From Chrysomallon squamiferum (taxonomy: Eukaryota; Animalia; Mollusca), in assembly GCA_012295275.1 (NCBI GenBank), contig CM022665.1, positions 12,772,001-12,836,000 on the forward strand: 64,000 nucleotides of DNA, given 5' to 3'. The notes below the pieces were generated by a model, which ran no database searches, had not been told where the DNA came from, and was given only the letters and a program-made list of their open reading frames with translations. The first letter of the stretch is position 1. The number at the start of each line of letters is the position of its first letter. Shown here one piece after another: positions 1 to 61,215 of the stretch. Both the position numbers and the translations under genes were made by a program.

Positions 1-55
1 TACAGTCTTGCTCAATAAATCTCAGAATTAAAGTAAATATGAAGAAGTCTGTGCA

Positions 56-122
56 TTATGTTGCTACATTCATCTGTGATAGCATATAAATTAAAGCAAT
101 CACAAGGCAAATATAACATCAA
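56..122 (-). ncRNA. pre-miRNA, miR-2/K-box seed family; predicted 3p UAUCACAGAUGAAUGUAGCAAC (81->60)
   Basis: Plus-strand TGTGATAGC (75-83) pairs with GCAATCACA (96-104); lower stem ATGTT/AACAT; seed AUCACAG. Confidence 0.65.
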
Positions 123-180
123 AATACATGTAATACTATTAATTTCTCTAAAAAAAATCATATATCTTCTTGTACATTTT

Positions 181-261
181 TGTTGTGCTTTCCCTAGTAT
201 CAGAAAGTGCTAGGTATAAAATCATTTCCAAGCACAAAGTGATGCCAGAGAAAGTAGAACA
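181..261 (-). ncRNA. pre-miRNA, UAGCACUU family; predicted 3p UAGCACUUUCUGAUACUAGGGA (212->191)
   Basis: Arm TGCTTTCCCTAGTATCAGAAAGTGCT pairs with AGCACAAAGTGATGCCAGAGAAAGTA. Confidence 0.7.
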
Positions 262-313
262 TTTGTTAAGCTGAAATATATAATTGTAATAACTATATTC
301 AAGATGTAAGGAA

Positions 314-389
314 GGTTGCTTACCCTAGCATCAGTAAGTGCTAAATATAATTTAGTTTCAGCAAAAACGGATACCAGAGAAAGAAAACT
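314..389 (-). ncRNA. pre-miRNA, UAGCACUU family; predicted 3p UAGCACUUACUGAUGCUAGGGU (343->322)
   Basis: Paralogue of the 181-261 hairpin with a weaker stem. Confidence 0.6.
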
Positions 390-580
390 CAGTATCTTTA
401 ATGAATCCTAGACTTGAGATCTGAAAAAAAAAAAAAAAATCCACAAATGTTTCTAAATTAATAAATAAAAATAGGTGATCCTTTCAGTGTAACATTATCA
501 CTTACATTTTGATACTTTGTAAATTATATACCAGTATTCATATTTTAACCAAACATTCTCTGTAAAGTTTGAACAGAAAC

Positions 581-646
581 ATACCCTTACTATATTTCCG
601 TCCAGTTCTTTAACACAGACAGGATGGGTATATAGTAAAGGAATAT
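581..646 (-). ncRNA. mir-184: pre-miRNA, diverged miR-184 paralogue; predicted 3p UGGACGGAAAUAUAGUAAGGGU (604->583)
   Basis: Strong stem CCTTACTATAT-TTCCGTCC / GGATGGG-TATATAGTAAAGG. The mature arm shares 5' UGGACGGA and 3' UAAGGG with canonical miR-184 (UGGACGGAGAACUGAUAAGGG). Confidence 0.8.
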
Positions 647-799
647 AAATGTGTTGGGATGAATCATTTATAACTGTTTCAGGTAATTCTGTACTGCCTA
701 CTTATACCTATTATAATTACTGAAAATATTACTGGGTAATATTCTTGAACTTACCTGAGTGCCTGGATATATATTTGTTTCTATGCTTATTGTACTCCA

Positions 800-866
800 G
801 ACCTTGCATTGATCTGTGATTGCTTGAGATTAACATTATGCAATCACAAGAAAAATACAATGTTAG
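800..866 (-). ncRNA. pre-miRNA, miR-2/K-box seed family; predicted 3p AAUCACAGAUCAAUGCAAGGUC (821->800)
   Basis: TGTGATTGC (815-823) / GCAATCACA (840-848) form a perfect 9 bp stem; CATTG/CAATG lower stem. Confidence 0.65.
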
Positions 867-1101
867 AATTCAAATTAATCAAACTAGTTCAAAAAGTTGC
901 ATATCATGACCAGCACCTCCTTTCTGTTTTTAAATAATCCTTTAAGATTTTAAGCAAATTAATATCTTGTCTCTATGAATGCCTGAACTAGTGGTAAGAC
1001 ACCTCTTCCCTTTCTAAGTAATCAGTTGATTTTCACTGATTTTGCTCATTCATATTTTTATTAGTCTTTAAAATATCTTTATTGAAAAGTCGTTAGAAGG
1101 T

Positions 1102-1181
1102 TTTTCATCTCGTGTCACATATAGCTGTGATAACTTTATATAAATTGTCATCACAAGCTAGATGTGAGCAGAGATGATAAA
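1102..1181 (-). ncRNA. pre-miRNA, miR-2-like; predicted 3p UAUCACAGCUAUAUGUGACACG (1132->1111)
   Basis: Long stem TCATCTC..TCACAT.TAGCTGTGAT / ATCACAAGCTA.ATGTGA..GAGATGA. The first 9 nt (UAUCACAGC) match miR-2/miR-13. Confidence 0.8.
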
Positions 1182-1236
1182 AATAAATTAGAACAAGAAT
1201 GTCAGCTATACAAAAATATGGTTAAATAAAGACATA

Positions 1237-1302
1237 TTTGGTATAGCATTAGAAAGTGCTAGCAGCAAAGATAAGCCAGCACATAACTAATGCTAGGCAA
1301 AA
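1237..1302 (-). ncRNA. pre-miRNA, UAGCACUU family; predicted 3p UAGCACUUUCUAAUGCUAUACC (1261->1240)
   Basis: TAGCATTAG..GTGCT pairs with AGCAC..CTAATGCTA. Confidence 0.7.
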
Positions 1303-1443
1303 GAAGCCATTTAAAATTTCATCATGAATTTTTTGTTAATCATAGCCTTTGTCAGTTGCTTGTGAATGTCTTTATTCTTGGAAGAATATACTATTTTATC
1401 ATAAGGTTTAATCATTCTGAATGTAACAAATATGAATGCCAGA

Positions 1444-1513
1444 TATCAGGTATTGCAGGTTTCTGTGATAGCTATTAACATCTGCAGTCACAAGAAAGAT
1501 ACAATGGCTGATA
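1444..1513 (-). ncRNA. pre-miRNA, miR-2/K-box seed family; predicted 3p UAUCACAGAAACCUGCAAUACC (1470->1449)
   Basis: TATCAG.TATTG..TTTCTGTGA pairs with TCACAAGAAA..CAATG.CTGATA. Confidence 0.7.
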
Positions 1514-1738
1514 AATGAAATTTTTCATTAATAGTAAGATCCATCGTGTATTTAGGATATACAAGTACCTCTTCATAATACTATCAATATTGTATTTGGT
1601 AAGAACATTTTTAGTTTATTTAGGATAAAGAAGTCCCTACGATAATATTATTTGCATTCTCTTTATTAAGAATTTTCATAGACTACTAGTCCCTACCAAA
1701 ATGATATCAGTAAGTTGATAAATCTGATGAAGACTATA

Positions 1739-1811
1739 ACCCAGTACCCCAGCATCTGAAAGTGCTAGTATCCTAATATAACAAGCACAAACAGATACTG
1801 TGGAACAGAGT
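1739..1811 (-). ncRNA. pre-miRNA, UAGCACUU family; predicted 3p UAGCACUUUCAGAUGCUGGGGU (1767->1746)
   Basis: CCAGCATCTG..GTGCT pairs with AGCAC..CAGATACTGTGG. Confidence 0.7.
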
Positions 1812-1952
1812 AATAATTGTGATACCAGTTCCCTTGATTATAGATCTCAAATTCTATTACACTATTTTACAGTGTCTTTGTCTTTATTTGTCTTTGTGGG
1901 TGATATACTGTTTAGTATTAATATCTAGCATACAAATATAGAGTAGTGGTAA

Positions 1953-2028
1953 TTCTTCTCATTCCCAGGATACCACTGTGATACTAACTATATGTGCAGT
2001 ATTACAAGTAGTATCTTAGGTACAAGAA
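1953..2028 (-). ncRNA. pre-miRNA, miR-2/K-box seed family; predicted 3p UAUCACAGUGGUAUCCUGGGAA (1983->1962)
   Basis: CCAGGATACCACTGTGATACT pairs with AGTATTACAAGTAGTATCTTAGG. Confidence 0.75.
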
Positions 2029-2109
2029 AAATCAGTTCTACAGTATATAATAAATTGGAGTATATGAAATAAAATGTTAAAATTTTATATTATTAGTATG
2101 TGGGAGTAG

Positions 2110-2197
2110 TTTCTTTGGCCAGCCCCAGGATTAAACTGTGATTGTTTGTTAGTATATTGACATTCACAAGTAGAATCACAGGACAAGATGAAGAAAT
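2110..2197 (-). ncRNA. pre-miRNA, miR-2/K-box seed family; predicted 3p AAUCACAGUUUAAUCCUGGGGC (2143->2122)
   Basis: CCAGGATTAAACTGTGATTGT pairs with ACATTCACAAGTAGAATCACAGG; basal TTTCTT/AAGAAA; close paralogue of 1953-2028. Confidence 0.7.
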
Positions 2198-2895
2198 ATT
2201 AACAAACTTTTATATAGATTTAACATATATATATATTGCAGTCAGAATAATAAATTAATATTTACTACTACATGAATGATACCAAAATGTGAAAAAAAAA
2301 AAAAATAGAATAGAATAGAAAAAAAAAAAAAAATAATAATAATAATAATAGTAACTGTCAGATATATAAATTAGAAATTTAATAAATCACTGTCACAAAT
2401 GAATTTCTAAAAAGCTGTATAACCAGAAAAGCTAATTTGTGTAAAACTCAAAATCACTACCTTCACTGTGGCTTGTCAAGCTTCAACTAAAAACTATTTC
2501 CAAAACTTCTACAAGTTACTCTAAGGTAAAGCTAATGATGACACCAGTCTCCCAATAAACAAAAACACCCAACCACAGAGCTCTTCAATAAGCAAATGAG
2601 AAATACCTCTTCTTTTGCCAATACCCTATTTATGAGAGGTGTTAAGTGGGTCTAGTGGGTGACTGGGTGGCTGGGGAAGAATCCCAGATGCCAGGAAATA
2701 GTGAAAAAAGCTTTGATGTTTATTGACTTGGATAATATCCTTGTGGGTTTTGAATTTTGTATTGTTCAGAAATTGGTTCATAGTGTTCTGATAATAAAAT
2801 TAATTTAGATTATGATCTAACATAATAGTGCTAAATTGAAAATGAAAATGGTTTTAAACATTTTTCATAATGTACCTAAATAACTGAAAGTTATA

Positions 2896-2930
<35 letters not shown>

Positions 2931-3989
2931 AGTATTTTCAGAATAAATATATTCTTTATAACTTTATAAAAATTTTAATTTATATCAAATACTAACTAAT
3001 TTTGCAGTACAAGAATAATACAAATATAAAAACTTTTTAACTTACAAAACAGGAAAATCTTGTGTATCCATCTACCAAGTTCTTCTTTCAGCTCCAGAAT
3101 GAAGTCTGTATTCTGTTTAACTTTGTCAGAGATATATATACCCTCTCACAAGAATCAAAAATATCTACTCAGAATCATTTTTATCAAAAGTAACTCTTCT
3201 GAAGCAACTTTCCACTCAATGTCAACTCCATCTCCTTGGACTGTTTCTCAAAAGATGCTTTCTCTTCTTGTGAACTTTCTGCTTTCAATTTTTAGTTGAC
3301 TCTGTAGTAACAGCTCCTCTTTCTCCAACTTGTTCTTCTCAGCTTGGATGTCCTATCAGTTCTACTCCTCAGTTGTGTCTTGCTGCCTTCTTATTTGCTG
3401 AGGTTTTTTTTGTTTAAGGATTTGTTGACAAACTTACCAATTAACTGTAACAGCACTAGTTGTTTAGACAATAGCATCCCACAGAGTGGACTCTCTAAGG
3501 TGTAAGGAGGTTTTACTTTTGTTTGTTTGGATTAGGATTAAGAAGAAAAAAAATAATATTGGATTAGAGGAGATATTCTGAGTAGGGAATTTTTTGGTAT
3601 ATGGATGAATTGGAGATTTAAAAACAAAAAACTAAATTTTCTTAATATCATCTTTGTTTTTAGATGTAAAATTAATTAAAAATGGAATAAAAATGAAGTA
3701 TTTATAAATAATAGTTTTTGACATTAATATATATATATTCAAAATATTAAACTGTTTTGAAGATAAAAAATAACAATTACCATAATTATTTTAATTTTTA
3801 TTATTCACAAATAAATTCTTTTCACACTGTTTCAGTTGTGCTGTTAAAAAGATTTATTCTCAGTTATATTTTTAAAATGAACAATAGGTAAATAATATTT
3901 TATTGTAAATTAATTTTTTATATATATATTTTTTAATAAACACATTTAAAAATATAAAATTTTGAACTAAGTTAATTAATTGCCCAAAT

Positions 3990-6900
3990 ATTTGATTGTT
4001 TATTGTATATTGTTAATTATTGTAAAACAATAGTGTTTATCATTGTATGTCACACTTGGTGTCAGATTAGCAGTTAATCCAAATTAATCCACACTTCTGC
4101 TGATCATCCTACACTGTACTGTGCAAAGAAGCCATCTTAAAACAGCTATAATTAACAGTTTGATATTCACACATACTGTCAGCAAATTCTATCTACAGTT
4201 TAAGAAGGAAAAAAGAATTATCTTAAAGTAATAAAAGAAATTTTATTTTACATTTGAAATTTGTTTTTTAAAAATATAATTATCTAGAAATTTAATGCTG
4301 TTGATGACATTATCGAATACATTTTTATTAAATTTGTTTATTTCTAAACTTTATACTGTTTTAATATATTTTGTAACTAGCCTTTAAATTATTTTTTTTA
4401 ATAATAATACAAAGTTTAATTTGTTTTAGCTGCAAATAAATAATACATTATTAATTTTTTTTACATATATTTGTGTGTATGTGTGTGCATGCATGTATGT
4501 GTGTGCATGCATCTATGTTTGTGAATGTGTGTGAATGTGAGTAACTTAATGAGTGAAATTTGATAATATAATATATCATCTTATATGCATTCAAACATTT
4601 CATTATATTTGTTATATAGTTTTTTCTTTTCAGTTGGGTGTAATACTAATATTTATTTTTATGTATTTATTTGAGAAAAAAAATTTAAGAAACAAATATT
4701 CATATAAATTAATTTCCAAGGATGTCAAGCACGTTTTCATTATTTTTGAAATTAAAACAACTACATCAACACATTTTTAAAAAATATTTTCTTTCTCCAG
4801 TTACTGAATACTTCATAAACTGAAAGTAATAAGATAACAGAAGTTTAAATTTGTTATTTAATACTGCTTTTACTAGCTGTCTGGGATAGCTGCCATATTG
4901 GTTTTCTGTCAGCAATGTTGTCTGTCAGAAGATTCTTATAAACACAAACACCTTCAGAATGTTTAGTAAACAAACATTTGACATTAACAAGGATGATATA
5001 TATTTCAAAACAACACCTTTATTAATTTATTGGGTAAATGTTTAATTATTTTTGTGTTTCTTATGTGATATATGAATTTTACTCATTTTATTTATTATTA
5101 TTATCATTGAAATTATTGTTCTTTTTCATCTTCATCTTCATAACCATCATCATCATCATCATCTTCTTCTTCTTATTATTATTATTATTATTGTTTAAAA
5201 ATTTTATAATGCGAAATAATCATTTTAATATATTTTGTTGCATTTTATTTATGTTTTGATAAAATTATTTTCTGAAAAATCTTACAATAATAAAAAAGTA
5301 AATGAACTGAATTAAAGAAATAACTTGTTTTAAAAAAAATTTCAACTGAAAATTGTTATTCTTGTAGTTCAGAAAATATTTACACATTAATTTATTTTAG
5401 AATTTCTATATATAAATATAAAACTGAATGAAAGAAAGTATTAAAATAATATTTGATTTTTTTCTCTGTTAATTTAATAAAATAAAAAGATATTTCAAAT
5501 ATTTTACTGATTTGGAAAATAAAAATAGTTATAATTTAGTTTTATTAATTTAAACAAATTTCATTACTTCACATTTTATGTTTAATATATATATTTGTAA
5601 ATAATATTTCTGAAATGTGTTAAAGATGCATTTTTATTCCTGTCTTATTAAAATAAAAAATAGTGTTTCATATTTAAATTGAAAAATAGTGTAAAAAATT
5701 ATATATTTAATTATTTATTTATTTTTTTTCTTTCTTTCTTTCTTTCTTTCTTTTAAAGATGTTTTCAGTTTGACATATATTACAAATATAAGATATACAA
5801 TATAACAAAACTAAATAAATTTGTCAGTTAATTGATTGTTTATTTGTTTACTGTTAATTATTGTAAAACAATAGTATTTATCACTGAATGCCACACTTGG
5901 TGTCAGATTAGCACTAATCCAATTAATCCACACTTCTGCTAATCATACCACACTGTTCTGTGCAAGGAAGCCATCTTAAAACAACTATAATTAACATACA
6001 TTTGATATTCATACATACTCAGGGTAAAAAAAATTGTTCAGTTTATGAAGAAAAGAAATAAAAAATAAAATAAAATTAGTTAAAGACAAAAATAAATCCA
6101 TGAAATTAATTAATGCAGTACCTAAAAAACAAAAACAAAAAAAACACAGAAAAACAAAAACATTAATGCCATAAGGTAATAATTAATTAACAGTTATATA
6201 AATATATAAAACTGCAACAACAACAAAATACCAAATTTCAATTTTAAAATTATTTGCAGTTTTTATGAAATTTTATATCATTATTAATATTATTTTGTAA
6301 AATTATTTTTTTCAAAATTTTAAAGTTTAAAATGTTATGTATTTCTTTTGTAATTTTGTTAATAAAAACAATAATTAAAACTATTGTAACAAATATTTAC
6401 TATATTAAAACTAATTTAGTAATATTTTATGACCTGGTTAATATATGTGTGTTTAAATGTATGAATGTGTTTATTGTGTGGCTTAACAACTTTAAAAACA
6501 ATTTTTTTTTTTTAAAGAATTATATTTGATTTATTTATTTGAAATGTTAAAAATAAAAATTTAGTTGGTTGCTTCCAATTTTAAAAATAATTTTTTTTTC
6601 ATAAAAAATATATTAAAAATGTTTTCAACCCTTTAAATTCAAAAATATATTAAAATACTTTCTTCAGATTTCCCTTTAATTAAGAAGTTCCTAAATGGAA
6701 ATACTTCATTAAAATTAGAAATGTAATATTTGCATTTATTTTTCAATTAATAATACTTCTATTAGCTGTCTGGAACACCAGCCATTTTAGACTTATGTCA
6801 TTAGTCAGAGTCAGCCATATTGTCTCTCTGAAGATTCTTATGAAAACAAACCCTTTCATAGCAAAACAGATTAGCAGAAATATTTTAGATTAGCAAAGAT

Positions 6901-8650: not shown

Positions 8651-10253
8651 TCAGTTTTGTTCTAAGAACAAATTTTGGTTTTCTCTGAATTTTATTTTTA
8701 AAAATTTTTACAAAATGTTTCACTGAAATTTTATATTACTATTTTTTTCTTCTATTTTTAAAGAAATTTTAATTAGTTTATGTAAATAAATCATCTTGTG
8801 AAAGACAATGAATTTTGTTGTTTCTTATTTTTCATTTTGAAATTCTTTAATGTTTTTTTTTTCGTCAAAGTATAAATATTTTTTTTTATTAGTGTTATTT
8901 TTATTACCAGAACTAATGAAAAACACATTTAAGTCTAAATTGATTGCTATGGTTAGATAAATCTTTTCATAGTTGGATCAGAATGTTTAAGATAAAAAAG
9001 AAATGAAATATGGTATAAAACAATTTTTTTAGAAAACGTAAAATATATAAAATAAATAAAAAGATAACAGTAATCTGAATAATAATAATAATAATAATAA
9101 TAATTATTATTATTATTACAAAAAAAAAAAAAAAAAAAAAAAAAATACACTAATATGAAAAAACAAAATAAATAAAATATATATAAATAATATGGACAAT
9201 CTCCCATAAACCCTCAATAACTTTTCCTGCAGGGGAAAAAAAATAAAAATAATAATAAAAAAAAAGAATCATAAAAACCAAATCTTTTATACAATTACAA
9301 GTAATGACAATATCATTTAACACATACTACCATATGTGACAGTATATTGTGTATTCCACATTAAACATGTAGAGTTTTTTGTACTATAGGCCTATCAGGA
9401 AACAGCAGGAGTTTGCTACTGTTTTGACAATATCCACTCTTAAGTTCACTGATTTAGTTTCAGGAATTTGTCTTCTGTTTACATCTGACAATATCCACTG
9501 AATGATTTTTCATTTAACTTTGTATTGTTGAATACTAAACTGCTTTTATGGCAATACATATTAAATAATAAATATAAAATATAGTATTATCTTTTTTCCA
9601 AAGTTGGTAAGACAGTTTAGAGTAATTAATAATAATAACAATAATAATAATAATAATAAAAACATCAATAATAATAATTATTATTAAATTTATACCACTT
9701 GAATACATATTTAATGATAACTTATTGCTATTTTTTAATTTGTATTGAATGAACAAAAAATTATTGTTTTAATAACTGTGTTTTTCTCTTTCAGTCTGTC
9801 TTTGTGTATATATATGTGTACGAGTGTGTCTGTGTGTAATATAATGTAAGGATGAAATCTGCAAAAACTTTGTAATTTTGGTTACTCTTACTGACTTGCA
9901 GCAAAGATTTTGATTTTAATCATGCTTTCCCATTGACAGGACAATATTGTATTGCTTTCATCATGCCAGTCATTGAGCACTGGTTTAAATGGGAAATAGT
10001 ACTCTAGGTACACTAAGTGGGATTGAACTTCAAATAAATATTTTGCTATGGCTTTATAATTACTTTTATAATTTTAAAAGTTTATTGTCATCATCATCAT
10101 AATCATCATTATTACTATCATCATTATTACTTTACCTCAATGTAACACAGTTTATTAACTTCAGTATTTTTTTTTTTTTTTTTTTTTACACCTATTGATT
10201 TAGTTGATTAAATTTGGAGAGCAGTTTAAATTTTATGGATATTGTTATTCTAG

Positions 10254-22356
<12,103 letters not shown>

Positions 22357-25550: not shown

Positions 25551-28500
25551 GATCAGTAACATTCAATATTTCATCAACTTACTACTGCATACAGATTAAA
25601 CACAAAACATAATAATAATTAAACAAAAAAACAAGAAACAATAGAGATACAGTTTCATATCTTTATTTGACCACCATAAATATTTACTATTACATAAGCT
25701 TTAGTAATACTGTCTTCCAGTTACAATATTTTAACTTTTTTTAATCCCTGTATCATTTGAAATAGGAAGCTTATTAGTTATCACAAACCTTCAACAATAA
25801 TATAATTGTGCAAAAATATATATATATTCATATTAAAACCATTTTGAGGGGATCTTGGTTCATTTATTAATCTCTGATTAAAACTATGATTTTGTAATTT
25901 TTTATTTTTTTTTTATTATTATTTTTTTTTTACCAATGTTCAGATTGTGATAGAATCTGAAGATAAAATACAAACATAAAAAATTATGTCTGCAATAAAA
26001 TTTATGTACAAGTTTTTAAAATTTTATTTTTGTTTTATATGCTGAGTATATGATTGTAACAACTGCATGATTTAAAATAAATATTGTAACTAAAACAAAT
26101 GTCCACCAGTTATTTTATTATTATCTTTTTTTCTTTGAGTGATGTGTAGCTTTATGGTTAACAATGGTTGTTTTCCATTATATTCCAGAATGGGAAATTG
26201 GTATTTATATTTTCTTATTTTAAAAAACCATAGTATTTAAAATTTTTAAAATAAAAAAAAAAAAAAAAAAAATGTTTTTTGATTGAAGAATTTCCAAACA
26301 TTTTAAAATAATCAAATAATTTGAAAAAAAAAAAAAAAAAAAAATTAAAAAAAAGAAGGAAAAAGGAAAACAACAAAGATGAGTGAAAAGTTAAATTTAA
26401 AAAAAAAAAAAAAAATGCCTTTTTTTCTGGAATTAAAAACAGATTAATTTTTCAGTAATTTCAGTAACATTATTCCAATATACATAACATGATTAAAAAC
26501 AGAACTATTTACACAACAATTAATGATGTGCTACAGGCATATCACAGTTGTTTGGCAAGAAAAAAAACATACATTAACACCTGAAAAACCAAAAAAACAA
26601 ACACCAAAACAAACATGCATTAATTAATAAATAATTTACTTACCTATGGCAGATGTTGAGAACTATTATGAGAGGGTCCAAGATAATTTCCTTAAAAAAC
26701 GTTTGTTAACAAGTTTTGGTAGCAGATAGTATAATCTGTTTTATTTTATTTTATTTTTTAAATGTAAAAGTGAATAAAATATTAGTAAAATTTTAAAAAT
26801 CAGCACAATGGATTAATTTTTTCCCCTTTATATTCTGGACACTTTACAGCCCAGGTTTATGGTCTATATTGATGTAATCAATAATAAATAACTGTATGAT
26901 TGTTAGGTCATGGCTGATAGTGACTTAATTCCATTATAACATTTAATTAAATAACATAAAAATGTCAAGGATTTATATTTTTTACTTATTTTTTTTGGTT
27001 AAATTGTATCAAAAATACTATTTAAAAAATCAAAAAATCAAAATAAAACTAACCTAATAATGCCAGAGGTTTATTTAATTATTGTTATTGTTTAAATGAC
27101 TGAATTAAGAAAAATCTTTCTGGTTCAGTTTTGCTAAAATTTCTGAACATTCTTTTGTTTTTGAAAATACAATAACAATCACAAATATTTAAGTATTATT
27201 CATTTTTTACTTGTAAACAATTATTAAGTTAATTATAAATAACAAAAAACAAAAATGATGTAAAATGTATTATCAACAGACCTGTCTGATAAGGAAAAAT
27301 ATAGAAAGCAAATATCAATAATATAATTAGAAAATATATAATTTATAAACACAAGAAAACATTAAAATAATAAAGGGGAAAATTCTTATAATGACAATAT
27401 CTGGTTTGGAAAAAACAACATAAATCAAAATTATATAATAATCATTATGTACAAGCATTAGTAACCTAGTAAAGTGCAGCTAAGTTGAAACCTTAAAAAG
27501 CTTTTATCCCTGATGTTTTGTTTCATTACTTTTTGATGTGCCTGTCTTTGTCTGCAGCAAGCACAGATCAAATTAATATTAATTAGGTTCAACATGAGTA
27601 CAGGTTACTATTAGTAACAAAGTTTTAATAAAACATTGCACTAAAACAAAGAAACAAAAAACACATCAACAAAAATAATTACTTTGGTATGCAAATGACC
27701 AAAAATCATTTTAAGTGTAGTTTTATTTATATTACATCCCATAGGGTCTTACTCCACGAAGCATTTGCAATTATCATAAAAACTTGATAATTGGTATTTT
27801 TATATATATATATAAAATCTCCTATTCTACATAATCTTAAGGATACAAACATATTTTTAACTTTACAATATTCTTCAAATTATAGTTTTTTAACACCATC
27901 AGAAATGTTCTGAATACAGATTTATTCTTCTAGAAAGTTAACACTACAAATATTCTACAAAGTTTAAAAGCAGTCCAAGACACTTGGCATATTGTAAAAT
28001 CAAATATAAATATTTAAACATCTGCCTGGAATATATCAAATATAACAAAAAGGGAGAAAAAGAAAAGAAAAATGTAGAAACTGTAAGGGTTAAAGTCAGT
28101 GATGATCAAATGTGATGTGAAATCCGTGGATCAAAACAGTAACACAGTCATAAAGTTTGATCAAACTTACTAATGTAAAATATATCTAAGAATTTACTTA
28201 GGGTACATACTGCTAGATACTGGCTGTATACAAAAAGAACAATTATTATTTTTTAATAATTTTTGCTGAAAAACTAAAGTACTGTAAATATGTGTTCAAA
28301 ACCTTCCACTAATCTAACAGAAGAATGAGATATATAAAATGGAAGTGAGAAGATAATTCAAATGTTACTTGCATAAATTTTAAATATTTAAAAGTATGAT
28401 GAAGCCGCTAATGTTTAAATGCATAGAGAAATATTTTAAATTTCTGTATTATAAGAAATTAAAAATGGATAAAAGACTAATAAAATGTATTTAAGTAGCC

Positions 28501-46159: not shown

Positions 46160-49100
46160 ATTATGAATAGAAACACGGTTATTTTTAATATTATATTTTT
46201 GTTAAATCATTTTTGGGGGGTTTATCTGGTGGTGCAGATAATACATAAAACATTGCTTCACCATGCACAATCAAAATAAAATCAAATAATAATATGCACA
46301 TACCGCTTTTGAAAAGCTTCATACAATACAGAAACACTTAAATTAGGAATTTTATGGTGTTTTCTTTTCCATTTCAAAACACAAGACAAAGGATACATTA
46401 AAAATATATAACTGCTTATTAAAGTTGTTAAAAAAAGAAGAAGAAGAGTAACATACCTCTCTTTGGTCAGAACTAAGTTGAAGATGTTCAGCATGTTGCA
46501 AAATTCTGTCTTTTTTCCTCCATTTGGCATTTTCTCGAGATTTAGACCTGGTAGTTATCAAAATTAAATTTGAGAAAAAGCACCCTGAACATGTTTTGGT
46601 AAATGTTTATCTGGATTTAAATCATCATAGTTTATTATTATTTGACAATTCTTGTTTGAGAAATATTTTAAAAGGAAATTTTGTACGTCTATTTAATTTT
46701 AAAAGAAAAAGAACTTATAAGGAAACTCAAAGTCTAGTTTTAAAATAAATGAGTGTTTAAATATATATAAAAAAAACCAAAAAACAACACCATAATTTGG
46801 ACTCTCACATAGATTCTAACAAATCTTACTCATAAATGTGATAAAACAAGAATTTAAACTGTATAGGATTTTAAATCAGTCTTTATATATCATCTTCTTA
46901 CTTTTTTTTTTTTACAAAACAGAAAAGGAAAAATGTAACTGGTGCATCTAGGAAATGCAGGATAGGAACGTATACATGCTGCCATGTGAAAGAGAACATG
47001 AGTGCACTAATGGATTCTGCTACCAGCAATAATTATTAATAATATATCTAGGTACACATACTTGTTACTGACAGGTTCAGTATTCAAGATATCTTGACTG
47101 AGGATCGGAAAAAATCCCATTTGGACGGTAGCTGGTTCAAACTGACCAGCAGGAGGAGAAGCTGGTTTGATGGCTGTGTGGTCAATGAAAGATGACCGCT
47201 TTTCAATATTCATCTCTACAAAACATTTTTAAAAACAAAGATATTTAATTAGTATTCACACTCTACATAAAATATATTAATACTAACAAAACAAAAATAT
47301 TAATGTAGGTTTTTTGTAGCCAAAGTATCAGATATTTTTCAAAAGCCATTTAAGATATTAACAGTAGATTTTGTCAATAAGTTAATTTACTATTTATTGA
47401 ACAAAAAAATAAAACATCTAATTTAATAATTATAATTATTAATATTAATATTAATATTACAGCAAAAAAAAAAAAATTAAAAATAAAAAAAAAAAAAAAA
47501 AAAGAAAAGAAAAATTAAAAAATAGAATTTACTATAAAACCCATGCTCAAAACAATAAAGATTTCACAAAATAAAGGTAAAAGATACTTAAAATATTGTT
47601 AAAAAACTGGGTTTTCCCATTATAATTTTTGTTCTTTAAAACTTACCCGTGTTGAGGAAAGAAGGACACTGACTATAAGTGAGTACTCTTGCTTCACCAG
47701 TTTCTTCACTGATCCGTTTAATGCGAGTATCAAACACATGAAGATATGGATCTGTCTCTTCCCAGTGAGATACAATTTTATTATCAATGAATGTCGTGAA
47801 CATCTGGGTCTCTAAAAAGGGAGACAAGAAAGGCAAGTGTGCTTCTGGTTGGTCGCTGAGGAATGATGCTTTGTCAAAAATCTGCATTGACTCTCGATTG
47901 TTCAGCCATGACTCCATGTCCTGTGATGGCTGAATTACAAAAGCTTCATACAAGGAGAACATATGAACGAACTGATTGAGAAATATTTCTCTGACAGCAT
48001 TGCTGAATTTGAGATCATCAATTTCAGAGATTGATGCTGAAAATGAGTCTCTGGAACCTTTTGTTGCTTTATCCTTGGTCATGGTCAGGTCTTCAGCAAA
48101 GTCTTCAATGGAGTCCCAGACCCCTGTCTTCTTCGCAAGATTTGAGATTTTCATCCATGCTTCGCTCTGTTGAAGAATCTCCATTTTCTTTGGCGAGTTA
48201 GGCCAGCTGCCAGTTCCACCACTCTCCAACTGACTTGACATTTTATTGCTGTTATCTCTCTTTGGTGTTCCTGGGTAACTTCGATTGCTAGTCTGTATGT
48301 CCTTGTTAAACATATGATTGTATTTCTTGATAAGGGCACATAATTCATCATTGAGTTGTTCCTTGTGAGGGAAAGTAGGCAGATCTTCTGGAACATCAAC
48401 GCTGTTGGCATCAATATCCACAAAGCACATGTTGGCCTAAAATTATAATTATTAAAAGAATAATTATGTTGCTAGAAAAAGGGAAACAACTAAAAATTTC
48501 ATTATAAATTTAAAAACAGTATAACTACATAATAAACTCATCGCAATCTAAATAAATAATACTGCAATAACGCACTGGCTTATTTCTAAATATTTTAAAT
48601 AAATAATTAATTTCTCTGAATTTTAAATGAGAATTTCACTAAACACTTGCATACTGTAAACAGTGTTGAAAACAATACCTCACAAGACAAGGACAACTCA
48701 GATCTATCCTCCTGACCACGGTGAAGACCCATAATAAATGGCACTGGTGCATCTAGGAAATGCTGCAGAGATGCTGGCAGGATAGGAACGTATACATGCT
48801 GCCATGTGAAAGGGAACATGAGTGCACTAATGGATTCTGCTACCAGCATTAACTTGTTATAATCTGAAGAAAAGAAAAGAAAAAAAAATGGTTTTTGGGT
48901 TGTTTGGGTTGTTTGTGTTTTTTTAATTCTTCTGCCTTATGTTTTTAATTATTATTATTATGATATTATTATCATCATCATCATCATCATTACTATTATT
49001 ATTAATGTTATTGTTAACAATACTTATGTCTAAACTCACCCTTTTAACTTGAATTATTTAACTTCAGTTATATTCATGATATAATTGCACAATCGCACGT

Positions 49101-50279
49101 GCAACAATAAAATCTTTGATGTAAAATATAAATTAAAATACAGTATACTATAATTAGTTTAAAACAAACAAAAATAAAATAAATAATGGTTAAATTTGTT
49201 TTTCATTTAAAGGGGAAACTGAAATTAAGTTAAGATTGAATTAAAAAAACAACAAGAAAACCCCACCTTTTCCTGCACTTACTAGTTAAACTAATACTCA
49301 TTTATAAACAAGAACAACAATTAAGATTCTATAAAAACACTTGCAGAATATTTAAATTAATTATAAGTATTAATAAATATGTCTACATAATAATAACTAA
49401 GCATTATAATGTGAAATATAGATATATAAATATTAATACTAAGAAGAAAAGAAAATTATGTATTGGAGAAATTATAACACATCTTGATTTTCAGATTTTA
49501 TTCATCACTTGCTAAATATAGTGACTGGTAATAAACATTCTGCACAACTTGCAGACAGTAATTACTGAACAGTTACATTCATCTTTATGTTTCACTTCGT
49601 CTAAGTGTAGATTCTTGACATTTAACATTCTGCACAACTTGCAGACAGTAATTACTGAACAGTTACATTCATCTTTATGTTTCACTTCGTCTAAGTGTAG
49701 ATTCTTGACATTTAACATTATACTAATAACACAATAATGTGATGTCATTAAGACAATACCTGAAGAATATAACAAAGTCTGATGCTCCAGCAAAACACTG
49801 GTAAAAATCTGTAGCACATTATCTGTTCCTAGTTTGCGAAATAATTCCCAAAGTGAGAAGTCAAACAGTGGAAGTTCACTTGTACCTGCAAATGTAAAAC
49901 AATTTTTAAACTCAACATTCGCCTTTTATCAACTGGCAAATATGTGGGTTAAAACAAAATTCCTGAGAAATAAAATATTTCTTATTCCATTCTAAGATGT
50001 ACAGAAGCTATAGAAAGTATTATTTTATTCCATAGTTTTAGTTATTTCACATTTATTGACTTATCAAACCAGTTTCTAATTATATGTGCATATAGCCAAT
50101 TTGTGAAAGGGATAACTGTGAAATTTCATTACAGTCAGCATATGGAACATAGTTAAGTATAGATTCATTATCATTAACAAAATACCTTAGAATTTTAGAT
50201 TTCTTCATGAATAATATAATTTTAAACATACATACATGAGAGAGAGAGAGAGAATGAAAATGAGAATAAGAGTGAGAAT

Positions 50280-50353
<74 letters not shown>

Positions 50354-51022
50354 ATATATATTATTATTTTAAAAAATAATAATAAAAAAATATTCACCAG
50401 GTCTCTGACAAACAATGGGGCTAGATACACCAAAGAATTTGACACTTCTCCCTGGTGGTGGAAGAGGCACTTCATACAGAATGTTGTAAACGTAACTCTC
50501 CAAAGGTAAAGATGGCTGTGGAGACTTGGCAATGGCTTCATGCAGCTGCTTTAGAAAATTTCTACATGCTCTGACAAACGGTAGCTGTGTCATTAAACAG
50601 ATACATTTTGTAACATACAGCTTGTCAGTGTCTGCTTCAAACGTTTTCTTACTCTCTCCAAATGGAATTATTGCATTCATCATAATAGGACTGTCGTCCG
50701 AGTCTGACAACGATGAGTCTTTTGGGCTTTGACCAGTGTCCAGTAAGAACATTGTCTGTAATGTTTTCATGGCAGAACAGATTCGTTTGTTGATCACTTC
50801 TTCGAAGAAAATGTATGCAGAACCATAATTGCGAGATCCGTCTTCGCGGGTGATGATGAATGAGTGGAATTGTGCTTCGCGTGAATGTTTTTGTGTTCTG
50901 AATGTCAAACCTTTTGGGAAACACAGCTGTAAAAGAATATTAAATACTTCATGATATATTATTATTAATTAGAATTAAAAAATAACATTCAAAGTGTGCA
51001 TTCAAAATAAAACAATAAATCT

Positions 51023-51062
<40 letters not shown>

Positions 51063-54000
51063 TCTTTTTGGTAAGATTTAATCAGTTTATATCAAAAGCT
51101 TGCTGTTTTTTTATCTTCATAAGATATTTTAATTCTTAATTCTTTGCGCAGTATAAATAAGTCAAATTTCAGTTAATAACATCATACTCTCAATACATTT
51201 TTAGATTATAAGTAAAACCATATTTTGAAATGATAGTTAAAAAAAAATTAAATCAAAAATTAAATCAAGAAAACCTGCTGCTGTTATTCTATGGATTGCT
51301 CTTATCACAATATCAGCAAGGGTTCTTTTATCGGCAGCTTTATTACATCATTCACGGGGATATTACTACTATTTGCAGCAGGACATTAATTGAATAACTC
51401 AGTGTGTAAATTATACCCATCTGCTGTACCACTTACCATCCCAACAGCATCTTTGTCGAAAGGATTCCATGAGACAGATTCAGGATAGTGAGCTAGTACT
51501 TTGGATTTGTACGGGCGTTCAAGTGGAGGGCAGTGAAGATGATCTCCTAAAATATAAAAATATTACTGTTATCTCACAAGGCTGAGAAAATGGATGGATA
51601 GTACTTAATTCTATAATCAATGAGCATCTTCTATAATTTCTCACTGAATATCATTTATAAATTAAATTTGAAGAACATTATATAAACCAAATTTAATTCA
51701 TTCCGTGACCAAGCTCATAACTCAAATTTGCTCATATATCAACTCAATTTTCCCAAATGAAATAAACTGAAATACCATTAATCTGTTCCAGCCCCCAAAA
51801 CCACCCCAATGTTTTGTAACACGTTTTTAAATAAGCTAAATGTATGTATAAATGACAAATATTGTATAAAAACAATTTAAAAGAGAATGTAAAGAAATAA
51901 ATTGGTTTTGTAAAGTGTACATGGTTAGGGTTTCTCCTTCTTTTCTAAGGTCCACAGCTTAGAAATTATTTTAACAATTTGCTTGGAGTTATAGCCTTTA
52001 TCGACTCCTTCAGCTTCAGTATGTTACATATTGTAAAAGTACTATACTTGTACTGCCTAGCCTTGTTGACTACACACACACCTTGCTCATGTTTTTCTAT
52101 GATTTTATGCTTTAATTCAGTGGACATCATCTGCTTCTTCTCAGCACTGTCCTTTGCACTCACTTTCTTAGGATCCATGGAAAATTGACAAAATACTGCA
52201 TAAATCGCAAGCATAACACAACAGAGATGTTTCCATGGCAAGGTAACCATGCGAAGCAAACAAGTGAAACGTGGGATGCTGGGCAGATGTTGTGTTGTTC
52301 GTTGTGCCAACTAGTTTGCAACTTGGATTTTGGCTCACAACTCAAAGCAAAACATCAAATGGGCAGTTGCTCGTAACTCGGAAAACCCATAAGTTGGAGC
52401 ACTTGTAACTCCAGTTACCTCTGCATATCTATATTAAAGTGCTCTTTATGTATTTGATCATCTAATGTACTAATGCATATAGGAACCCCTAATGGTAATA
52501 TGAAGTGACCCACTTTATATTTTAAAAAATGGTGAATTCAGTGAGTAGAAATTCAAAACAGCATTTTTAAATGATCTATATCTATCTGTCTATATGTGTG
52601 TATGTGTGTGTGTGTATGTGTAGATATATATATATTAATCAATATTTTTTCTTTATTTAATTATTTTTCTAAATGTGGAGTATACTAACTAAAAAATATC
52701 AATCTTCATGCTATTGCTTTTAAATAAGTACATTTTTATTTTTTATCTTCAACAACTTGATTGTTAGAGATGTTAATTTACAAATCTCTGTATAGCTTAT
52801 CTCTGCTCTATAGTGATGAATGACCTTCCTACTGCACAGTTCCTGCTGTGTATTATTAACACACTTGGTGTTAAGAATGCCTGTTTCCTGTTGACAGTTG
52901 ATAAAACTACATCCAAAATGACAAATGATTGGAAATAATACAATAATGCTAAGCAATCATTTGTCATATCATTATGATAAATTAATATACACATGTAACT
53001 TATAGCATTCTATTCTACTGATTCTTTTTTTAAAAGAATATCTAGCATTGTACTGTACAATTTTTAAATTTTAATAATGTTTCCAAATGTGAAAAGTATA
53101 TAGTTGATTGTGTTAATTTTTTTTATTTTATTAATTACTGGTAGGATATTACTAAATAAATAATCAGTTATAAAAATAATAATTAAAACATGTTTTTAAA
53201 TTAGTTTTTGTCATTTAAAAACTGTATGTACTTATCATTATGATAAAGGTATTACAGTAGACTGAGAATAATAATAATAAATATAATAATAACAAAAAAG
53301 AAAACATCTAAGAAAAATACCTGAAAATTCAATCAAAATAGTAAATATATAAAATACAAATTAGTAATAAATTAAACAAAAATATATATTTTTTAAGTCA
53401 TCAAACATTAATTCATGCATACTTTAGCTTTATTAAAAATTCAAAGGAGAAAGAAATACAGTAACATCCTTGTACCATAAAAATGTTTAACACACAATTT
53501 GTATTAAATTATACAGCTGCCAAAAACAGTTCTTTAGTTATTTATGTAAGGGCTGTGAAAAAAAGAAGAAAAATAAAGATGTTTGTAAACATTGGCAGAC
53601 TTTCTCAAAGGCATTACTGTTTTGACACGTTTGAAGCATTTCAAGTTCAGCTTTCATATACCTGCATAAGACAGATAAATATGGATGTAGTGTTAAGTAT
53701 GTTAAACAGACAAATAATGTAATCACAGTTGTGTTACATACAGATTACAAGAACCATGCATGTATTCAAGTTCATACACAGGACACGTACATCTATGCGA
53801 TGGAAATTTGCCAAGGCCAGCCTTGAAAAAATAAATCAGTTTGCCAAAAGCTTACCTATGAACATCAGTTAAACATGCACTAATAGATGTTGTTTCTAAG
53901 TTACATTAGTACTGTAATATTTACTGATTTGTTGTTGCTCTTCTTTTTTTTCTTTCTTTTTTTAAAGATTACATTTATACATGTATATAAAAAAATGTAA

Positions 54001-58602: not shown

Positions 58603-61215
<2,613 letters not shown>

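Follow-up and report, generated by a model that had tools for sequence, protein, structure and literature searches.

The stretch of 64,000 nucleotides (nt) analysed here, referred to as the window, comes from the gastropod Chrysomallon squamiferum (GenBank assembly GCA_012295275.1, contig CM022665.1, positions 12,772,001 to 12,836,000), and near its beginning it carries six minus-strand hairpins whose predicted products share the seed AUCACAG, which is complementary to the K box. The six are probably paralogous predicted microRNA (miRNA) genes, duplicated locally inside a cluster of 11 hairpins that is likely polycistronic. An earlier note on this DNA had described six K-box-seed copies; the six hairpins are real, but the unit to which they belong is a mixed cluster of 11 hairpins in which two further seed types are interleaved. 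On the basis of the seed alone, the six are filed here as K-box-seed miRNA candidates that would work like mir-2-type miRNAs.

Six K-box-seed hairpins and their common descent

Between positions 50 and 2190, the motif WAUCACAG is found on the minus strand at 81, 821, 1132, 1470, 1983 and 2143, and each of the six sites opens the 3' arm of a hairpin immediately after the loop. Arm and 5' end of the products were predicted from the sequence, and the resulting matures are exactly those given in the earlier note, in strand as well as in position. The base composition of the window is AT-rich, with a GC content of 0.21-0.32 per 2 kb. WATCACAG occurs 14 times in the window as opposed to 5.38 expected (standard deviation 2.27), a count reached in 0 of 100 dinucleotide shuffles, and six same-strand occurrences inside 2.1 kb are far more than chance would provide. 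When the remaining eight WATCACAG sites of the window were folded likewise, none of them (0/8) lay in a hairpin of pre-miRNA size; the site at 26540 (plus strand) belongs to a short stem of some 18 bp.

The hairpins, all on the minus strand, are designated a to f. Hairpin a (50..130) has the predicted 3'-arm product UAUCACAGAUGAAUGUAGCAAC starting at 81 and a folding energy of -23.6 kcal/mol (z score -3.57). Hairpin b (790..874; AAUCACAGAUCAAUGCAAGGUC, start 821) folds at -25.4 kcal/mol (z -4.14), hairpin c (1098..1184; UAUCACAGCUAUAUGUGACACG, start 1132) at -33.9 kcal/mol (z -8.38), and hairpin d (1434..1516; UAUCACAGAAACCUGCAAUACC, start 1470) at -21.5 kcal/mol (z -3.05). They are followed by hairpin e (1945..2028; UAUCACAGUGGUAUCCUGGGAA, start 1983), with -28.3 kcal/mol (z -4.71), and by hairpin f (2108..2190; AAUCACAGUUUAAUCCUGGGGC, start 2143), which has the weakest stem, with -17.2 kcal/mol. 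The z scores of five of the six thus range from -3.05 to -8.38. A scan of both strands of the 64 kb that was blind to the seed returned five of the six among the 45 listed best single hairpins, with hairpin c as the top single hairpin of the whole window, and 12 of these 45 fall in positions 1-2200, which make up 3.4% of the window. Under MirGeneDB-type criteria, the two arms of an imperfect hairpin should share 16 or more paired nt, and the loop should be of suitable size. The six hairpins share 22 consensus pairs and have loops of 12-16 nt, in agreement with these criteria, and like other precursors of the K-box seed class they have a predicted guide seed that pairs with CUGUGAU.

The star arms are equally characteristic. 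CUUGUGA is present in five of the six copies and CUUGUAA in hairpin e, the copy at 1983, so that the star motif CUUGU(G/A)A proposed in the earlier note holds throughout; the one-nucleotide bulge that it regarded as shared was likewise recovered, as one U of CUUGUGA is unpaired in the consensus, opposite seed positions 6-8. On the minus strand, CUGUGAUU is also present at the base of the 5' arm of hairpin f, and its antisense, one of the eight remaining sites, is the plus-strand WATCACAG at 2174-2181. The putative primary transcript would therefore bear a K-box site complementary to the seed of its own family.

In the alignment of the six hairpins (A1), 18 of 76 columns are invariant, and 13 of these belong to the seed ATCACAG and the star motif CTTGT.A, while outside the two motifs the sequences are only 64% identical on average. 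Of the 22 pairs of the consensus structure, 12 have changed on both sides with pairing kept. Paired cells amount to 85.3% compared with 70.2% after shuffling of the partners, and in 500 shuffles none of the five measures used was attained; when the partner was slid by 1-3 columns, pairing fell to 27-42% and the pairs changed on both sides to 2-4. R1, a covariance model for which only the six K-box hairpins were used, scores its members at 70.0 (a), 71.8 (b), 68.5 (c), 65.9 (d), 53.8 (e) and 61.4 bits (f), that is, at 53.8-71.8 bits, with the best match outside the cluster at 13.8 bits and an expectation value (E) of 0.82 in 64 kb. No further family member was found by R1 in 2200-64000. Because seed and star are invariant, the bulge is shared, the stems are compensated and R1 is specific, common descent by local duplication is the best reading of the six, as the earlier note had supposed when it derived them from one precursor. 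It is well supported by the sequences that one ancestral hairpin was duplicated locally, probably with selection on seed and stem.

The relatedness of the individual copies is less even. Pairwise identity of the non-seed 3' arms ranges from 17 to 75% among the six. Hairpins e and f, with an identity of 57% over their whole length and of 75% in each of the two arm segments outside the seed, are mutual best partners, in line with the suggestion that the copies at 1983 and 2143 are more recent duplicates. For the pair 81/821, proposed in the same way, the support is partial, as hairpin b (821) is as near to hairpin d (1470), with 60% overall and 91% over the 5' arm, as it is to hairpin a (60%). 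Hairpin c has no close partner in the pairwise identities.

Cluster mates, strand and transcription

The 11 minus-strand hairpins comprise the six K-box hairpins, interleaved with four mir-29-like hairpins whose 3' arms open with UAGCACUU and one mir-184-like hairpin. The predicted matures follow each other with a start-to-start spacing of 129-311 nt, as in polycistronic clusters. The four UAGCACUU hairpins are paralogous, with z scores of -3.8 to -5.2, and 6 of their 19 consensus pairs show compensatory changes. The hairpin m29a (180..262; predicted 3'-arm product UAGCACUUUCUGAUACUAGGGA, start 212) folds at -26.1 kcal/mol (z -5.19) and matches Rfam mir-29 with 25.8 bits compared with a gathering score of 46.7 (E 0.028 in 4 kb). 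The hairpin m29b (312..392; UAGCACUUACUGAUGCUAGGGU, start 343), included in alignment A2, folds at -22.6 kcal/mol (z -3.80), m29c (1228..1310; UAGCACUUUCUAAUGCUAUACC, start 1261) at -28.9 kcal/mol (z -5.18) and m29d (1740..1815; UAGCACUUUCAGAUGCUGGGGU, start 1767) at -27.4 kcal/mol (z -4.64). The mir-184-like hairpin (568..658; UGGACGGAAAUAUAGUAAGGGU, start 604) has a folding energy of -25.2 kcal/mol (z -4.00) and reaches 34.8 bits with Rfam mir-184, as opposed to a gathering score of 54.1, with E values of 6.4e-5 in 4 kb and 0.001 in 64 kb. miR-184 is otherwise known to be near-invariant, and the sequence of this hairpin suggests a diverged extra copy, not the canonical gene. Compared by eye with the matures printed for Biomphalaria glabrata (PMC12261956), the mir-184-like product keeps the GGACGGA seed and agrees with miR-184 at 16 of 22 positions, and the mir-29-like product agrees with miR-29 at 13 of 22 positions and differs at seed positions 7-8.

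R1 also detects some similarity between the K-box and the UAGCACUU hairpins, with 24.6 bits for m29c (1235-1302, E 0.002), 15.9 bits for m29d (1741-1807), 11.5 bits for m29a and 10.2 bits for m29b, while the mir-184-like hairpin scores at most 5.8 bits. Furthermore, hairpin d and its neighbour m29c agree by eye at 13 of 22 mature positions. The two types may share ancestry, with a seed changed within the cluster; alternatively, the cross-similarity may be due only to their related UGUG/CAC cores. The duplication of a larger unit consisting of a K-box and a UAGCACUU hairpin was considered as well and rejected, as the spacers between the hairpins contain no convincing repeats.

The starts AUCACAG, GGACGGA and UAGCAC are found in the canonical 3'-arm position on the minus strand only. 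The sense minimum free energy is below the antisense value in 9 of the 11 hairpins, including 5 of the 6 K-box hairpins, and each hairpin contains 1-5 G-U pairs, which become C-A on the opposite strand. In addition, a CNNC motif at +16 to +18 after an assumed 22-nt 3'-arm product is present in 5 of 11 sense hairpins (at +16 in a, e, f and m29b, at +17 in m29d), compared with 1 of 11 in the antisense control. CNNC in this position is a Microprocessor-enhancing motif, and its enrichment at the cluster hairpins is suggestive of a minus-strand signal. The minus strand is thus favoured by the stability of the sense folds, the excess of CNNC and the 3'-arm position of the known seeds.

With regard to transcription, two RNA libraries of one study contain 16-19% of the sequence words of the stretch, and five runs labelled as DNA or of unrecorded kind contain most of them. 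RNA mapping spanned 480-2220, where four contigs were placed at 672-914, 1293-1530, 1459-1744 and 1566-1748 with a depth of 2.5-4.6; two of the DNA runs yielded no contigs there, possibly owing to filtering, and stretches left uncovered carry no evidential weight. These contigs cover hairpin b (by 672-914) and hairpin d (by 1293-1530) together with spacers, and are a weak hint of an unprocessed primary transcript. One RNA-library contig contains four extra nucleotides, TGTG, after position 751. This insertion falls in the spacer that separates hairpin b from the mir-184-like hairpin and is likely a polymorphism outside the hairpins.

Family placement and comparison with known clusters

According to Marco et al., the 3' arm of mir-2 is highly conserved, and the family was ancestrally linked to mir-71 (Marco et al., 2012; PMC3384581). 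The present cluster resembles strict mir-2 and the mir-71/mir-2 cluster (PMC3384581, RF00047) in the seed, the arm, the tandem paralogues and the protostome host, and all six predicted 3'-arm products carry the mir-2 seed AUCACAG at positions 2-8. In contrast, a 3' arm that is conserved beyond the seed and recognisable by a covariance model, the other feature of mir-2, was not found. The 3' halves are unlike each other, the search of 1-4000 with Rfam mir-2 gave no match, and no match to the mir-71 family was found in the window, which ends 50 nt beyond hairpin a, with the 3' side of the transcript outside it. By the description of Marco et al., the six share only the features of seed and arm with mir-2, and strict membership is not supported. 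Four TGAAAGAC sites, examined for the mir-71 seed, lie at least 6.6 kb from the cluster and are no more numerous than expected by chance. The common ancestor of the six may have been either a copy of a canonical mir-2 or an independent hairpin with a K-box seed.

The cluster also agrees with the wider K-box family of protostomes, represented in Drosophila by mir-2/13, mir-6, mir-11 and mir-308. This family has the seed AUCACAG complementary to the K box, a mature in the 3' arm, many clustered copies produced by local duplication and strong divergence outside the seed (PMC4238352). Unlike that family, two of the six matures open with A instead of U, the star arm carries the cluster-specific CUUGUGA with its bulged U, and no mature matches a printed member beyond the 11 nt shared by hairpin e and bdo-mir-6. 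An identity of this length between the copy at 1983 and Drosophila miR-6 had been put forward in the earlier note; it was confirmed for bdo-mir-6 of Bactrocera dorsalis (PMC4593211), the Drosophila sequence not being part of the check. As the identity continues for no more than three bases past the seed, chance or convergence would plausibly suffice to explain it.

Mixed clusters comparable to this one are known from Drosophila. In mir-11~998, a K-box member adjoins a member of the mir-29 family, and in the early-embryonic mir-309~6, copies derived from several old seed families have diverged and share one promoter (PMC4238352). The present cluster is similar to the former in that K-box and mir-29-type members stand side by side, and to the latter in its composition of diverged copies of several old seed families. 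It differs from both in that it belongs to another phylum, has a mir-184-like partner and mir-29-like partners with the seed AGCACUU, and lies in no host gene recognised here; homology of the arrangements is not claimed. Closer in taxonomic terms is the mir-2 cluster of Biomphalaria glabrata, in which bgl-miR-2c, 2c.1 and 2f are located on one scaffold within about 1 kb and have strongly unlike 3' halves (PMC12261956). Both cases involve a gastropod host and clustered K-box-type paralogues with differing 3' halves, but the sequences beyond the seed show no correspondence by eye. The Biomphalaria cluster is reported to be intronic, and one of its members has a changed seed (PMC12261956).

Searches for the products themselves returned no matches. 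Nine predicted matures, searched in RNA letters and three of them also in DNA letters, were unmatched in the full texts of papers, a scope outside which supplementary tables, miRBase and MirGeneDB lie. Exact matches to the mir-184-like mature amounted to 0 loci in metagenome and prokaryote genome contigs, and to the mature of hairpin c to 0 loci in metagenome contigs, these collections being without gastropod genomes. Among the papers listed for Gigantopelta and microRNA, judged by titles and the beginnings of abstracts, none dealt with the miRNAs of that group.

Alternative explanations

Several observations weigh against the interpretation of the six as duplicated miRNA genes of the K-box type. 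No Rfam family reached its gathering score anywhere in the window, and mir-2 (RF00047) was not one of the 11 matches obtained for 1-4000 at E ≤ 10. Mir-308 (RF00743) remained below its gathering score of 60 bits and matched hairpins a (21.4 bits, E 0.41) and b (21.1 bits, E 0.48) only, and mir-754 matched hairpin c with 19.8 bits (E 3.2). Hairpin f folds poorly, with a z score of -1.57 and 19 of 200 shuffles equally stable, and hairpin d folds marginally better in antisense (-21.3 vs -20.1). The mature and star sequences, the 5' ends and the 2-nt overhangs of the hairpins are predictions from sequence. Moreover, the RNA contigs are of low depth, strandless and derived from libraries that possibly hold DNA. 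As the six were chosen by their seed, its invariance among them results partly from this selection; the covariation shuffles ignore the relatedness of the paralogues, which the slid controls keep; and the CNNC excess (binomial P about 3e-4 at a background frequency of 0.064) stems from a test picked after seeing the data, which assumes 22-nt matures.

Among the alternatives, the one to be taken most seriously, although we consider it distinctly less probable, accepts the mutual homology of the six but not that they come from mir-2: a lineage-specific hairpin would have gained AUCACAG by chance or convergence and then been duplicated, with a K-box-like function. This would agree with the failure of Rfam mir-2 to match 1-4000 at E ≤ 10, with the lack of a mir-71-seed hairpin near the cluster, and with the 3' halves, none of which resembles by eye those of the printed Biomphalaria mir-2 matures, which all begin with the seed and then differ (PMC12261956). 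There is also a precedent, as Marco et al. find no evidence of a kinship with mir-2 for mir-6 and mir-11, which share its seed, and advise against counting them as members (PMC3384581). Mohammed et al., on the other hand, consider diverged K-box members more plausible as old copies changed outside the seed than as de novo births (Mohammed et al., 2014; PMC4238352). As in mir-2 (PMC3384581), the mature lies in the 3' arm and its seed immediately follows the loop, which likewise speaks against an independent origin, as do the old family seeds of the cluster mates, which would fit the acquisition of existing copies.

A further alternative, which we hold to be improbable, is that of neutral or decaying duplicates, or of a structured repeat, from which no functional miRNAs are produced. 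The poor fold of hairpin f would suit this explanation, as would matures known here as predictions only and the 0 matches in the metagenome or prokaryote genome collections and in papers; however, seven seed and six star columns are invariant while 12 of 22 stem pairs have changed on both sides and stay paired, no more copies occur in the 64 kb, unlike a dispersed repeat, and neither the CNNC enrichment nor the folding bias towards the sense strand would be expected of it. We regard transcription of the cluster from the plus strand, with functional arms other than those predicted, as very improbable. Antisense versions of the hairpins do fold and are scored by R1 at 13.7-34.4 bits, d and m29a fold equally well or slightly better in antisense, and strandless RNA contigs accommodate either direction. 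Nevertheless, the greater sense stability in 9 of 11 hairpins, the conversion of 1-5 G-U pairs per hairpin to C-A on the other strand, the CNNC ratio of 5/11 to 1/11, and AUCACAG, GGACGGA and UAGCAC placed canonically on the minus strand only all oppose it.

Proposed mechanism and significance

If the six are duplicated miRNA genes as preferred here, Drosha/DGCR8 would cleave a single primary transcript of the minus strand at each of the stems, and the stronger stems and those bearing CNNC may possibly assist weak neighbours such as hairpin f, in line with the idea of cluster assistance (abstract of PMC13041549). The hairpins would next be processed by Dicer and their 3' arms taken up by Argonaute. 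The common seed would direct all six guides to K-box (CUGUGAU) sites in 3' untranslated regions, and the unlike 3' halves of the guides could lead to different supplementary pairing, and thereby to partly different target preferences, perhaps also to differences in turnover or stability. The cluster mates would add targeting through AGCACUU and GGACGGA under the same promoter.

Taken together, this is probably a new miRNA cluster of a known type in a gastropod lineage, unrecorded yet fairly ordinary, and it leaves the knowledge of how miRNAs work unchanged. Provided that the hairpins are expressed, a lineage for which the literature searches gave no miRNA annotation would gain six miRNAs with a K-box seed, together with the five cluster mates. 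It offers a clean case within one locus of duplicated hairpins that keep seed and stem while the 3' half drifts, a pattern that bears on the debate about diverged copies versus convergent births of seed-sharing miRNAs (PMC3384581 vs PMC4238352). The mixed composition would also make it possible to ask whether old seed families have repeatedly been brought under a common promoter, outside the arthropods as well. A more specific and rather doubtful idea is that of a lineage-specific cassette of neomphaline (vent-type) gastropods, in which diverged members of three ancient seed families, now six K-box, four mir-29-like (AGCACUU) and one mir-184-like hairpin, would have been brought together and amplified under one promoter. 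In molluscs, such a cassette would correspond to the early-embryonic mir-309~6 cluster of insects, with the UAGCACUU hairpins perhaps derived from K-box hairpins through mutation of the seed.

Neighbouring genes and other features of the window

The protein-coding surroundings were assigned by Pfam domains. Exons with VWC, VWD and TIL domains occupy 12395-22356 on the plus strand (domains at 12.8-22.4 kb) and, judged by this domain content, belong to a putative BMPER/crossveinless-2- or kielin/chordin-like gene, divergent from the cluster and about 10 kb away. Exons of DENND5 (uDENN/DENN/dDENN) were found on the minus strand at 47636-50968, and an exon with a HIT domain on the plus strand at 59323-59661. 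Over its 266 amino acids, one DENND5 exon has an identity of 81% with Gigantopelta aegis, of 64% with Haliotis rufescens and of 55-59% with seven further named gastropods; identities to the named bivalves, cephalopods and chiton are at most 54%, and those to the named arthropods (apart from one partial match with 45% coverage) and vertebrates 40-48%. Among named species, Gigantopelta aegis is thus the closest relative, which places the window in a neomphaline-type gastropod. The open reading frames (ORFs) at 49512-49925 and 49525-49737 contain an internal tandem duplication of about 100 nt.

Rfam matches to mir-297/mir-4012 on the plus strand at 4459-4527 and 52576-52642 (33.4 and 28.3 bits compared with a gathering score of 90) were rejected as sub-threshold; judged by the nature of the mir-297 family, they are likely low-complexity hairpins, probably derived from repeats. 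Rfam matches to snoRNAs at E values of 7.5-9.6 were treated as chance. Long repeats of the trinucleotide type at 10245-10720, 12091-12387 and 18865-19362 give rise to poly-Leu, poly-Asn and poly-Ile/Val ORFs in several frames, and perfect palindromic hairpins of 33 bp are present on both strands at 12151-12230.

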